From contig CAVOFT010000001.1 in the NCBI GenBank assembly GCA_963695095.1, positions 544,001 through 608,000 of the forward strand: 64,000 bases of DNA, read 5' to 3'. Below, one piece after another: positions 45,273-63,954 of the stretch. Positions within the stretch are counted from its first letter, which is position 1, and each line of letters begins with the position of its first letter. The notes below the pieces were generated by a model. The model was given only the letters and a program-made list of their open reading frames with translations, searched no databases and had not been told where the DNA came from. The position numbers were made by a program, and so were the translations under genes. Origin of the DNA: an uncultured bacterium (lineage in GTDB: Bacteria > Krumholzibacteriota > Krumholzibacteriia > JACNKJ01).

Positions 45273-46948
45273 TCAGTCCGGGGCCGTCTCAGTGTCCTCT
45301 GCGCCACGCTCGGCGCGAGTAACCCCGAAACTCTTGAGCTTCCGGTAGAGCGTCGCCGAACCGATGCCGAGCTGGGCGGCGCTGCGGGTCTGGTTTCCGC
45401 CGTTGAGGTCGAGCACGGCCAGGATGTAGTCCTTCTCGATCTCGTCGAGCGCCCGCACCGGACCGGAAATCGACGGGCGTCGGGATCGCCTGCCGGACCT
45501 CCTCGGGCAGGTCGTCGAGTTCGATCGAGGTTGCCGCGGCCGAGCGCGACGGCCCGCTCCATCGCGTTCTCCAGCTCGCGCACGTTGCCCGGCCAGTCGT
45601 AGCGCAGGAGCTGGTCCGCGGCGCGCGGCGACAGCCCGGTGACCGGGCGCTTGGACCGCGCGGCTGCCTCGGCCAGCAGCACGCGGGCCAGCGGCAGGAT
45701 GTCCTCCCGCCGGTCCCGCAGCGGCGGCACGTGCAGCTGGACCACGTTCAGCCGGTAGTAGAGATCCTTGCGGAAGCGGCCCGTCTGCGATGTCCGCGGC
45801 GAGCTCGCGGTTCGTCGCGGCCATCACCCGCACGTTCGACGGGCCGGCTCTTGTTCTCGCCGACGCGGCGGATCTCGCGCTCCTGGAGGACCCGCAGCAG
45901 CTTGACCTGCATGCCGGGCGAGACGTCGCCGATCTCGTCGAGCAGCAGCGTGCCGCCGTTGGCCGCCTCGAACAGGCCGATCCGGTCCTGCGCAGCGCCC
46001 GTGAACGAGCCGCGCGCGTGGCCGAAGAGCTCGCTCTCGAGGAGCGACTCGGTGATCGCGCCGCAGTTGACGGCGATGAACGGCCCCGCGGCGCGGGCGG
46101 ACTCGTCGTGGACCAGACTGCGCGATGAGCTCCTTGCCCGTCCCGCTCTCGCCCGTGATGAGCACGGTGGAGTCCACCTTCGCGATCCGCCGGGCGAGGT
46201 CGACGACACGCCGCATGGCGGCGCTCCGGGCGATCATGCCCGAGCGGATCCTCGGACCTCGGGGGCCACGCGGGTGAGCACGCGCTTCCTCTCGCGGAGC
46301 TTCCGCTCGGCCTCCTTGAGGTTCTCGGTGATCTGGTGGAGCGAGGGTTCGAGCCATTCCTTGAGGTTCTCGACGCGGTAGAAGCGGAGCTCCTCCGCCC
46401 GATCGTCGCCCCACTCCTCGAGCGTCCGACCGAGGAGGTGACAGGCGGCGTCGCCCCGGCCGATGCAGCGTTCCTCGAGGACGTAGATCTCCTTGCCCAG
46501 CGCCCGACTCAGGTAGCCGCTGGTGAGACCGCAGATCGTCCAGCACACGGAGGCGTCGCTGCGCCCGAGGTGGGCGATGTGCTGCTCCGCCTCGTACGAG
46601 CCGACGAGCGTCAAGCCCTTCCTTCGTCAACGAACCGGGCGGGCCCGGCCCCAGGCGGTACATGCCTTCGAGCATGTGGATGCGCCCGCAGGCATGGTGC
46701 CAGTCGTCCTCGCTCTCCCACTGGAACAGGTCCTGCATCGCCTCGGCCATGCGCCAGCCCTGGACGAAGCCGAACCGGGTCAGGACGGCGCGCGCGGTAG
46801 TGAGGCCGAAGTGGTTGATCAGCTCCTTGCGCAGGTTCCCCTTCGCCGTGGCGTCGATGATGAGCGCGCGCTCTCCCGCGAAGCGGACCACGCCATCCTC
46901 GGAGTCGAACTCCACCAGTTCGCTGATGTTGAGGTCTTCGACGCGCAT
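45273..46948 (-). CDS. XylR/DmpR-type sigma54-dependent activator (XylR_N + V4R + AAA+ + Fis HTH); several frameshifts
   Basis: [25 protein letters not shown]...[65 protein letters not shown]. Confidence 0.92.
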
Positions 46949-46956
46949 GGCCCCTC

Positions 46957-46989
46957 CCTCCTTTTGATGGAGTCTGCCTCATTCTGATG
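46957..46989. promoter_or_regulatory. Candidate activator-binding boxes (2 x 13 bp, 20-bp period)
   Basis: CCTCC-TTT-TGATG (46957) and CCTCA-TTC-TGATG (46977). Confidence 0.6.
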
Positions 46990-47041
46990 GGTGACGCAAG
47001 GGCCTATGTCCGCCAACACCCTGGCAGGACAGCACTTAGGC

Positions 47042-61100: not shown

Positions 61101-63699
61101 AGACGCCGGCCCGGCTGGGGAGCAGTCCGGCGAGACTCGGCAGGAGCGTGGGCAGGGCGATCGTCGCGACGACGAAGGTCGCCCAGGCCAGCGGCGAGGC
61201 GGCCGGCAGCGCCCAGCTCAGCGCGAGGACCAGGAAGCCGGCGGGCGCGGACAGGCTGCGCCGCAGGTTGTCCATCATCTTCCAGCGGCCGATGGCGGGC
61301 ACCCGGCCGCCGAGGATCCAGGGCAGCAACTGCCAGTCGCCGCGGGCCCAGCGATGTTGCCGGGCCGCCGCGACCCCGTAGTGCGCCGGCGCGCTCTCGA
61401 ACAGCTCGACATCGGTGACGAGTCCGGCCCGGGCGAAGAGACCCTCGAAGAGATCGTGGCTCAGGAGCGCGTTCTCAGGCACGCGCCCCGCCAGGGCCGC
61501 TTCGAAGGCGTCGACGTCGTAGATGCCCTTGCCCGTGTAGGAGCCCTCGCCGAAGAGGTCCTGGTAGACGTCGGACACGGCCGCGGCATAGGGGTCGATG
61601 CCGGAGGGGCCCGACGACAGGCGCTGGAAGAACGAGCTCTCGCTGCTCGGCAAGGGCGGCGTGACGCGCGGCTGCAGGACGGCGTAGCCCTCGACCACGC
61701 GACCGGACTTGGCATCGAGCCGCGGGTGATTGAGGCGATGCGCCATCGTGCCCACCAGGCGCTTGACCGCGCCCCGCGGCAGGCGGGTGTCGGCATCCAG
61801 CGTGATGACGTAGCGCACCCCGGTCGGCGCCGCGCGGCGGGCGATCGGCCGCGGGCAGGAACGAGGTGTCGGTCGCTCCGCGCAGCAGGCGGTTCAGCTC
61901 GTGGAGCTTGCCCCGCTTGCGCTCCCAGCCCATCCAGATCCGCTCGCGATCGTTCCAGCGCCGCCGCCGGTGGAAGAGGAGGAAGCGCTCGTCCCCGGCG
62001 TCCGGCATGGGGTGGCGCTGGTTGAGGCGCGCGATCCCCGCCCGGGCCATGGCCAGGATGTCCTCGTCGCCGGGCAGGGTCTCCGCGGGCGCGTCCGTCC
62101 AGTCGGAGAGGAGGGCGAAGCGGATGTCGCCGTCCGCGTTCGCGAGGTAGTGCACCTCGAGCCGCTCGATCTGCTCCTCGAGCTCGGCGGGGCTGGTCAG
62201 CAGGGTGGGCACGACGACCAGGGTGCGCAGGGACGGCGGCACCCCGTCGCGCAGCTCGAGGCGCGGCAGGGCGACCGGCGTGAGCGCCGCCGTGATGCCG
62301 CGGTTCAGCAGGGCGATCGCCAGATCCGAGGCCGGAAAGACAGCTGCCAGGCCGAGCAGGACCAGGGTCACGACGCCCGCGCCGGCGGTCCAGGCGGCAA
62401 GGAGGGGCGGCGCGAGAAGCACCAGCGTCAGGAGGGCACTGGCGCCCAGATAGCCGGGCGTCGCGCCCGCGAGATAGGCGCGCAGCAGCTTGCGCGCCAG
62501 CGGCTCGCGAAATCCGAGGGCCTGCTCGAGGGCGCGGCGGCCGTCGCCGATGAGGTGATAGCCGGGGTCGCCTCGGCGGTCATCCTCGCTCGAGCTCGCC
62601 GCCGCCAGCGCGATCACGCTCGCTGGGCCACGTCGAGCTCCGTCGCGCCGCGCGCCTCGCGCGAGCTGCTCGATGGCGTGGCGGTAGCTGTCGCGGGTGG
62701 CGAAGTCCATCGCCGCATAGCCGACGTCCGCCTGCAGCACGGCGTCGACCAGGCTGACGCTCTCGAAGAACTCCTTCCAGTCGAGCGCGGACATGAGGCC
62801 CATGCTCGTGATCACGTTGCGGACGGTGACGTTCATCGCGGCCTGCCGCTGGTGCTCGACGCGGACGATGTCGTCGGGCGTCGTGCCCTGGGCGGCCAGC
62901 CGCTCGGTCCAGCCAGACGCAGGGCAGGCGTCACGCCGGATCCTGATCGCGGAGGCGCTGGACGAGCTGCACGGCGAAGGCGGTCTTCAGCGGCGCCTCC
63001 TCGAAGTCTGGAGCGCCCACGCCGCGCTCTGTCGGGAGCGGCCGCCGAGGCCCGAGCAGCTCGTCCGCCAGGGCGTCGGCGTCCTGCCGTGCCGCGCGGC
63101 TCCGCGCACGATGCTCTCCGTGAGGCGCCGGAGATTCTCGACGAGCACGATGCGCAGGCTGATGGCGATCGCCCACAGCTCGCCGATGGTCAGCGGCTGC
63201 ACGCGTTGGTAGGCCTGCACGAAGCGGCGGAGAGTGTCCGGCTCGATCCGGCTGTCGGTGTGCGCGACGAAGGCCCAGGCGATGCCGTAGACCTGCGGAT
63301 AGCCGAGCGAGCGGGCCCGCGGCCAGCTTGGGCAGCTCGCGGTAGAAGCCAGGGGGCAGGTCCGTCGCGGATCTCGCGCAGCTGTTCGTCGACGAGGTGG
63401 AAGTTGTCGACGAACCACTCCGCCGCCGGCGTGATCGCGCGTTCCTCGCGGATGGCCTTGGCGATTGCGCGATACCCCTCGCGCAACACGCGGCCGTTCG
63501 CCTCGACGCGCGGCAGCAGCGAGCGCCCCTTGCGCGGCGCCGCGAAGACGGGCTGCGCGGTGGCAAGGCTCTCGGCGTGCTGCTCGAAGCGCTCGCTACC
63601 GAAGAGCTCCGCCCGGATCGGCGCTTCCAGCTGCTTGGCGGCAAAGGCCAGGGAATGGGAAGGGCTGGGTAGCCTGCGCAAGCCGTCCCGCCAGGCCAC
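55170..63699 (-). CDS. ndvB: Cyclic beta-1,2-glucan synthase (GT84 + glucoamylase-like + GH94), ~2800 aa, several frameshifts
   Basis: PIRAELFGSERFEQHA, WMGWERKRGKL, VITLDADT, LSHDLFEG, RQHRWARGDWQ, PPDNFQE, YDLLASEARL, SWSGSMFEY, GFRDQLQD, GDWNDG, RENGGQYTH, TWYTG; start codon uncertain. Confidence 0.93.
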
Positions 63700-63921
63700 T
63701 ACCCGGCCGCGGTCGCGTTGCGAGCGGCATCGTCAGACGCGTGGCCTGAACAACTGCCCCGCGCGGACGGACCGTGCATCACTTCCTCCATGCCCGGGTT
63801 GTTGCGGCGCGTGACTCCTCGGGGATTCGCGAAGGCGGGAATGTCCGACGGCGCGGAGTATGGGCGAATCGGAGGTGCGACACAAGCACTCGCACCAGAC
63901 GGCGTGTCTCACTTGAATCCA

Positions 63922-63954
63922 CATCATTGTGATGGAGGCGGCCTCACTCTGATC
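63922..63954. promoter_or_regulatory. Candidate activator-binding boxes (2 x 13 bp, 20-bp period)
   Basis: CATCA-TTG-TGATG (63922, perfect palindrome arms) and CCTCA-CTC-TGATC (63942). Confidence 0.65.

Follow-up and report, generated by a model that had tools for sequence, protein, structure and literature searches.

A likely sigma-54 regulon of envelope genes under a XylR-like activator with an altered sensor pocket in an uncultured bacterium

The window analysed here, a 64-kb stretch (64,000 nucleotides) of contig CAVOFT010000001.1 from an uncultured bacterium (assembly GCA_963695095.1), carries the gene of a XylR-like sigma-54 activator together with three arrays of short palindromic boxes. 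We consider it likely that they form a one-component sigma-54 regulon, in which paired boxes with a 20-bp phase act as upstream activating sequences (UAS) of three promoters serving envelope genes. The original prediction for this region had described such a regulon as self-contained, and that is true of the activator, its sites and its targets; rpoN, which encodes sigma-54, is intact in the genome and lies 1.9 Mb from the regulon. Its reading of the boxes as the activator's UAS and of the targets as envelope and stress genes is supported, while two of the targets named there, a glucan synthase and an Hsp20 protein, are not supported. The analysis shows the sites and how they are phased, the promoters, a conserved wiring, the domains encoded by the genes and the substitutions in the sensor pocket.

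Seven boxes had been predicted in three intergenic arrays, and their coordinates, intergenic position and exact 20-bp phase all hold (Table 1). Describing them as the same 13-bp box was an overstatement: the exact sequence CATCA-N3-TGATG occurs once in the window (at 63922, 0.04 expected) and the other six boxes carry one or two mismatches. Allowing up to two mismatches returns 45 matches in the window against 15.9 ± 4.3 expected, the majority of them in coding DNA and hence weak evidence. Given the single exact site, a 13-bp matrix was used in place of an exact-motif search, trained on 28 sites that precede the activator orthologs of 19 closely related loci (L002-L020) and on no site from the window. 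At a threshold of 10.5 it found 958 sites in the 3.61-Mb contig C1, for which about 0.25 pairs are expected per spacing. Four pairs were spaced by 20 bp, all within the three arrays, and every other spacing gave 0-3 pairs, mainly at multiples of three; 18 sites scored at least 18, of which four are in the arrays. In the genome-wide motif check suggested with the original prediction, a matrix from other genomes thus has its only strong 20-bp pairs in 3.61 Mb at the three arrays. A candidate for a fourth array, the weak pair at C1:1684876, was rejected as the 3′ end of the 16S rRNA gene, where the match to the CCTCC part is a chance one.

Sigma-54 promoters follow the consensus TGGCACG-N4-TTGCW. 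Scoring GG-N10-GC sites over its 12 positions gave one promoter with 10 of 12 matches for each array, named P_A, P_C and P_B (Table 1). The two -24/-12 elements predicted earlier (47042 on the plus strand and 55023 on the minus strand) are borne out, the 55-65 bp quoted for their distance being that from the box end to GG. The third array had been assigned to the glucan synthase gene; it precedes instead a rightward, plus-strand promoter serving genes past the window end. No -24/-12 element with at least 10 of 12 positions was found for the synthase in 63650-63920, and a reading by eye at lower stringency likewise found none. Aligned orthologous regions point to the same elements. In seven P_C regions the GG and TTGC columns are invariant and the two proximal boxes hold invariant columns, in six P_B regions the boxes are invariant, and in both alignments all or nearly all invariant columns fall in the boxes and the -24/-12 element. 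Box pair A also overlaps the presumed sigma-70-type promoter of the activator gene (-35 TTGCGT at 46994-46999, -10 CAGACT at 46971-46976), which we recognise by a CTTGAC...TAGGGT pattern conserved among relatives. A separate conserved element (approximately TTGAATC...CAGTTAC) lies between the boxes and the -24 position (47025-47041 and 55030-55060 in the window, 14625-14650 in L002). It keeps its distance to the proximal box (about 58 bp) rather than to the promoter, and could be the site of a bending protein or a weak extra box.

Relatives were collected with the N-terminal 115 residues of the activator, which gave 281 pattern matches, of which 122 were confirmed and 80 loci kept. The close set comprises L002-L020 (19 loci, 320 kb), and the distant set 61 loci at 52-67% identity, labelled Myxococcota, Acidobacteriota/Holophagae, Gemmatimonadota and Desulfobacterota in their records. 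Orthologous activator genes are preceded by two boxes, roughly 42 and 22 bp before the start codon. In 10 of the 19 close loci each of the two matches at least 7 of 10 arm positions, and three more loci have one strong and one weak box. By matrix score, a pair adjoins the activator start codon in 13/19 close loci, and the same is seen in distant homologues. Altogether the close loci hold 38 pairs spaced by 19-21 bp, and 33 of these have a sigma-54-like site 60-95 bp away on one side, where about 2% would be expected from the density of such sites. These distances group into three classes that differ by one helical turn, namely 67-71 bp (14 pairs), 77-81 bp (14) and 89-91 bp (5), and 55 of 66 boxes face away from the promoter. 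Paired upstream sites before a -24/-12 element, the arrangement of XylR/DmpR-type activators, are thus seen in the sequence of the three units here and in 33/38 pairs of the relatives.

In the distant set at least one pair is present in 43 of 61 loci, often at the activator's own start; spacing is 21-22 bp in 52 of 67 pairs, and for 38 of the 53 promoters assigned the distance is 75-81 bp. Boxes beside orthologous activators, which the original prediction had proposed as a check, thus recur in most close loci and often in the distant clade. This change of spacing with the clade, together with the position of the boxes at the activator gene, is our main argument that the activator binds them. 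A sample of 201 genomes of the phylum contains 25 with the sensor at E ≤ 1e-20, the window genome included, and 19 besides the window genome with at least 71% identity. A loose two-box pattern has 32 matches in 14 of these 19, and 18 of the 32 share a contig with the activator gene and are no more than 30 kb from it. One genome of the sample (G062) has two activator copies (C34:15105 and C15:11659), 84% and 79% identical to the L002 sensor, with matches of the two-box pattern near both.

The activator gene is broken into three frames in the window. Its pieces match XylR_N (8.9e-27) and HTH_8 (1.9e-12) in Pfam, with V4R in a shifted frame and GSFTGA in the translation. The intact ortholog of L002, 555 amino acids (aa) long, has XylR_N (6.5e-27), V4R (6.2e-8; 33.1 bits against a cut-off of 31), Sigma54_activat (3.7e-71), AAA_lid_14 and HTH_8 (1.4e-14), that is, the XylR_N and V4R sensor, AAA+ domain with GAFTGA-type loop and HTH_8 of an XylR/DmpR-type activator. 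Compared with four orthologs, the window-specific indels of the gene are eight single-base insertions (at about 46620, 46255, 46238, 46118, 45838, 45784, 45526 and 45477) and zero deletions. With the insertions skipped, 555 codons are open without a stop, identity to the four orthologs is 89-92% (92% to L002), and the ratio of nonsynonymous to synonymous substitution rates (dN/dS), at 0.13-0.18, does not differ from that of intact orthologs. Further frame breaks affect the tail of unit A, unit B, unit C and the 5′ part of the synthase gene; those of unit B are three 1-bp insertions and one 2-bp insertion relative to orthologs, again with no window-specific deletions. A frame-tracking model places dense frame-switching patches at 44100-54850 and 60100-64000 of the window and at 608000-611500 of C1, and similar patches occur elsewhere in the genome, in 20-kb bins such as C1:720001 and C1:1320001. 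The insertion-only pattern suggests a consensus error biased towards insertions in parts of the assembly, and in view of this pattern, the open 555 codons, the ortholog-like dN/dS and the similar patches elsewhere, the breaks in the activator gene look like assembly errors.

The sensor of the activator is homologous to those of the phenol sensors, the best PDB sequences being PoxR (3.7e-24), DmpR/CapR (1.5e-23) and MopR (1.5e-22). Database proteins matching it number 1785 at E ≤ 0.001, with 79-100% sensor identity to the L002 query among the 120 listed. The roles of DmpR residues, including the Zn ligands and the effector pocket, are taken from PMC7264223, which describes Trp128 as strictly conserved in DmpR, and were transferred to the activator through sequence alignments with PoxR and DmpR. 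Conservation was counted over 116 close and 33 distant members. The structural Zn site (C135, E158, C161 and C169 in L002 numbering) is kept in 116/116 close and 31-32/33 distant members, and the equivalent of His100 is conserved in the activator family. Leu takes the place of Trp128, which anchors the phenol, in 115/116 close and 30/33 distant members, Tyr155 is replaced by Leu and Tyr170 by Val (each of these three changes being present in 111-116 of the 116 close and 30-32 of the 33 distant members), Phe93 is replaced by His, Gln or Arg, and a hairpin segment of 5-6 residues is absent just before the Trp128 position. From the set that defines an aromatic-effector pocket (His100, Trp128 and the Tyr/Phe lining), the His alone is kept. 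A pocket that differs from the phenol sensors throughout the family fits the idea of a repurposed sensor advanced in the original prediction, and the activator probably senses a small hydrophobic molecule other than a phenol, held in the V4R pocket. An AlphaFold model of the sensor domain, with a mean predicted local distance difference test score (pLDDT) of 51.6, was too poor for a fold search.

The genes behind the three promoters encode envelope or stress families. Unit A is syntenic with L002 and L008, where units orthologous to unit C are also found; unit C has frame breaks between its genes. The tail of unit A varies among relatives and may be co-transcribed with the rest of the unit. 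Downstream of P_B come a secreted protein of 105-133 aa (weak DUF6627) and then a Peptidase_C39-like/TPR protein. Relatives add BON, DUF6600, Gly-zipper-OmpA, PKD-OmpA and Peptidase_M48 families to the targets, and in L014 one first open reading frame encodes a Bac_transf sugar transferase. No catabolic family lies downstream of any box and promoter unit scanned in the window and the close loci, as had been claimed for aromatic catabolic genes, and control of catabolic operons, as exerted by XylR/DmpR-type activators, is therefore not seen among these units. Earlier gene calls hold for DUF948, YtxH, DnaJ, DUF4398, OmpA and the outer-membrane (OM) barrels; Hsp20 was not found in the island with PF00011, whose sole match in the genome is at C1:2734897. 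The first protein of unit A, A1 (91 aa), has no match to the PspA family and a weak one to DUF2525 (0.0023), and ESM Atlas gave unnamed clusters alone. Another DUF948/YtxH gene at 44280-45189, directly preceded by a sigma-70-like match (10/12 positions, 44255-44284 on the plus strand), is paralogous to the DUF948-like and YtxH genes of the unit A tail and lacks boxes itself.

Table 1. Coordinates of the activator gene, boxes, sigma-54 promoters and neighbouring genes, in positions of the window.
Feature	Position	Strand	Remarks
Sigma-54 activator gene	45273..46948	−	XylR_N, V4R, AAA+ with GSFTGA, HTH_8; three frames
Box pair A	46957-46969 and 46977-46989	−	20 bp apart; matrix scores 19.5 and 19.9; presumed UAS for P_A
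P_A	47043..47058	+	GGGCACGATAATCGCA; 10/12 positions; GG 67 bp from proximal box start; kept in orthologs
A1 coiled-coil protein, ~91-100 aa	47138-47440	+	Near activator in 12/19 close loci (tblastn)
A2 Gly-zipper lipoprotein	47465-48109	+	Pfam; 12/19 close loci (tblastn)
A3 OM beta-barrel	48106-48651	+	Pfam; 11/19 close loci (tblastn)
DUF5670	~48717-48875	+	Pfam; unit A
A5 OM beta-barrel	48955-49566	+	Pfam; 8/19 close loci (tblastn)
DUF3185/DUF202-like membrane protein	49584-49796	+	Pfam; end of unit A core (47138..49796)
DUF948-like	49900-50250	+	Pfam; unit A tail (49900..52131)
YtxH	50281-50637	+	Pfam; unit A tail
DnaJ-type chaperone	51014-52131	+	Shifted frames; near activator in 3/19 close loci
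OmpA-family C-terminus	52203-52511	−	Pfam; OmpA in 8/19 close loci; unit C
DUF4398	53811-54155	−	Pfam; unit C (52203..54864)
PagL-like OM beta-barrel	54196-54864	−	Pfam; OM barrel in 8/19 close loci; unit C
P_C	55008..55023	−	CGGCACGGGAGTTGCG; 10/12 positions; GG 77 bp from proximal box start
Box array C	55087-55099 (strong), 55107-55119 and 55127-55139 (weaker)	+	20-bp phase; matrix scores 18.2, 10.9 and 11.0
Cyclic beta-1,2-glucan synthase-like gene	55170..63700	−	GH94, glucoamylase and GT2 pieces; three frames
Box pair B	63922-63934 and 63942-63954	−	Matrix scores 19.8 and 15.8; presumed UAS for the rightward promoter at 64020-64035
P_B	64020-64035 (20 bases past window end)	+	AGGCACGCGGATTGCG; 10/12 positions; 79 bp from box start, 67 bp from box end

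The glucan synthase gene itself, about 2800 codons in 8.5 kb, is lodged between arrays C and B. None of the 19 close loci contains it, and 4 of the 61 others do, which together with the assignment of the third array to the rightward promoter leaves it unsupported as a target. In L002, L006 and L012 two outward-facing pairs of the P_B and P_C types are separated by about 150-170 bp, and nothing intervenes. The whole regulon and the synthase make up a segment of 22.9 kb (44.24-67.15 kb, from 44240 to position 611150 of C1), and a same-genus genome lacks this segment at the matching junction (G001:C6:45480-46022), where the end of the upstream gene, coding for 2038 aa, lies 80 bp from the gene found at 67155-67528 in the window genome. 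The activator was not found in 11/11 same-family genomes. RpoN is 54-59% identical to that of three ortholog-bearing genomes, and in G031 and G034 the synonymous divergence (dS) of RpoN is 0.67-0.72 against 0.29-0.31 for the activator, which suggests exchange between lineages. A test for foreign composition gave no signal (GC 70.3% for the island against 70.5 ± 1.5% for the genome; tetranucleotide r 0.990 against 0.992). The composition of the island being native, the segment may have been either gained here or lost in relatives. Beyond the segment, at L082:11820-16130 (minus strand, equivalent to about 75320-79630 of the window), there is a 1436-aa FG-GAP repeat protein with a Por_Secre_tail, a sorting signal of type IX secretion; the DUF4159, DUF4175 and TPR genes upstream of it are common to same-genus genomes.

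Several observations weigh against our interpretation, and some of them would favour a different one. The boxes might be operators of another factor, such as a repressor or a nucleoid protein, with the XylR-like activator binding elsewhere or nowhere in this region. Their core, ATCA-N5-TGAT, is simple, their assignment to the activator is made from sequence, and the loose two-box pattern also has 83 matches in 60 of the 181 genomes without the ortholog (0.46 per genome versus 1.68 in genomes with it); being common in coding DNA too, this pattern alone discriminates weakly. The matrix, moreover, was trained on activator-proximal pairs of the same 19 loci, so that roughly one in three of the 38 pairs is not independent of it, and a consensus scan for sigma-70 promoters and terminators did not flag the activator promoter and gave no useful operon ends. 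We nevertheless regard another factor as highly improbable: 33/38 pairs lie at an activator-typical, helically phased distance from a -24/-12 element, boxes adjoin the activator start codon in most close loci and in distant clades, the spacing between them differs from one activator clade to the next, and they cluster near the activator gene. It is also improbable, if a little less so, that the protein is an ordinary sensor of aromatics or solvents, for which the envelope genes would be a solvent-tolerance arm and the catabolic targets would lie elsewhere or be lost. Homology to PoxR, DmpR and MopR, the retained Zn site and His100 equivalent and the plausibility of a hydrophobic V4R ligand speak for it; the loss of Trp128 to Leu in nearly all close and distant members and of the hairpin segment speaks against it, as do the genome-wide scan, which revealed no additional strong box pair, and the 19 close loci, where no unit examined has a catabolic gene downstream.

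The state of the assembly has to be considered as well. The reading frames of the activator and of several targets are disrupted here; should the insertions be genuine, the circuit does not work in this organism. The module could then be a decayed remnant made of pseudogenes, or the stretch could be of low coverage or chimeric, leaving the window without a working circuit. The eight breaks within the 1.7-kb activator gene and the further ones in the tail of unit A, units B and C and the 5′ part of the synthase gene are what such a history would leave, and the same-genus genome without the segment and the same-family genomes without the activator agree with it. Among public sequencing runs the best match covered 0.09 of the sampled words and no RNA run matched the stretch, so that none exceeds 9%. 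Yet every window-specific frame-shifting event found is an insertion, the activator gene without its insertions evolves like intact orthologs, frame-switching patches of like kind occur elsewhere in the genome, and GC content and tetranucleotide usage of the island match the genome. On balance we hold decay or chimerism to be unlikely. A last reservation concerns the envelope-stress role, which is read solely from family names, many of them DUFs.

Returning to the one-component regulon that we favour, we infer from the sequence that the activator binds the boxes, regulates its own gene and responds to a ligand. Activator dimers would most likely occupy the 13-bp imperfect palindromes (approximately CATCA-AAA-TGATG), 20 bp apart on one face of the helix and some 87-120 bp upstream of the start sites presumed for the three -24/-12 promoters, and the bound activator would use ATP to open complexes of the sigma-54 holoenzyme. 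Occupancy of pair A would fire the divergent operon and also limit synthesis of the activator, since the pair overlaps the activator's own sigma-70-type promoter and its occupancy should both activate and autorepress. The predicted products are small OM barrels, OmpA-type proteins, Gly-zipper lipoproteins, DUF5670 and DUF3185 peptides, YtxH and DUF948 proteins, a secreted protein and a C39-like/TPR protein. As these are envelope proteins, the physiological output would be a reinforced envelope, as in general, osmotic or desiccation stress.

V4R and XylR-type sensors are textbook pollutant sensors, much used as biosensors. Here a large and conserved sub-family keeps their scaffold, has a different and invariant pocket and appears to drive envelope proteins instead of catabolism. 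More tentatively, and with some doubt on our side, we speculate that it represents an undescribed, widespread and horizontally exchanged envelope-stress pathway, in which a cytoplasmic, Zn-containing V4R sensor without the phenol-anchoring Trp would respond to a non-aromatic hydrophobic cue and act directly through sigma-54. The cue could be a lipid, a solvent-like or a membrane-derived molecule that switches on OM barrels, OsmB/OsmY-like proteins and membrane peptides. If true, this would be a functional counterpart of sigmaE/RpoS-type responses in lineages labelled Eisenbacteria-like, Myxococcota and Acidobacteriota in the records. The regulon also offers a first handle on stress control in Eisenbacteria-like bacteria, of which we know no regulatory study, no search for one having been made. 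The cis-code is unusually clean (a 13-bp box, a 20-bp phase and three helically phased promoter distances), which allows the regulon to be recognised by sequence in uncultured phyla and makes the question of the ligand accessible to a heterologous reporter. A literature search over main texts gave no description of the V4R sub-family or the regulon, including in the available parts of PMC12316311 and PMC4641369.

The mechanism proposed is that of XylR/DmpR-type activators, to which the protein belongs by its domains, its Zn site and the paired sites, and from which it departs in its pocket and in the absence of catabolic targets. OrpR was considered as an Fe-S analogue and set aside as irrelevant, its sensor being a PAS domain and not V4R in the part of PMC8359166 available. 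The homologous sensors of DmpR/CapR (6iy8), MopR (5kbe) and PoxR (5fru), with E values of 1e-22 to 1e-24, share the Cys/Glu/Cys/Cys Zn site and the His100 equivalent; unlike in DmpR, positions Phe93, Trp128, Tyr155 and Tyr170 hold His/Gln/Arg, Leu, Leu and Val and 5-6 residues are deleted, and unlike in all three, no phenol pathway is near, none being present among the units scanned. XylR of the TOL plasmid activates the Pu and Ps promoters and is transcribed from the divergent Pr, and a site pair that overlaps its own sigma-70-type promoter underlies Pr/Ps autorepression. Our activator has the same domain order (XylR_N/V4R, AAA+, HTH_8), paired sites upstream of sigma-54 promoters and a divergent site pair overlapping the regulator's own sigma-70-type promoter, which predicts autorepression. 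It differs in having envelope targets instead of catabolic operons, a changed effector pocket and 13-bp palindromes exactly 20 bp apart and only 67-91 bp from the -24 GG.

PspF, which has no sensor domain and is held by PspA, is likewise a sigma-54 activator divergent from an envelope-stress operon. The first gene of the operon here also encodes a small coiled-coil protein; this 91-aa protein has no PspA match, however, and the activator carries a ligand-type V4R sensor, so that the PspF/PspA module is not what is found. Sigma-54 envelope responses are a general theme in the available part of PMC3162934. The targets resemble RpoS and SigB regulons too, with BON, Gly-zipper, YtxH and OmpA-like families among them. 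In those regulons, RpoS- or SigB-dependent stress genes include osmY (BON), osmB and ymgG (Gly-zipper lipoproteins) and ytxH. Their control differs: in place of an alternative sigma-70-family factor, the regulon described here would be governed by a sigma-54 activator with a small-molecule sensor.

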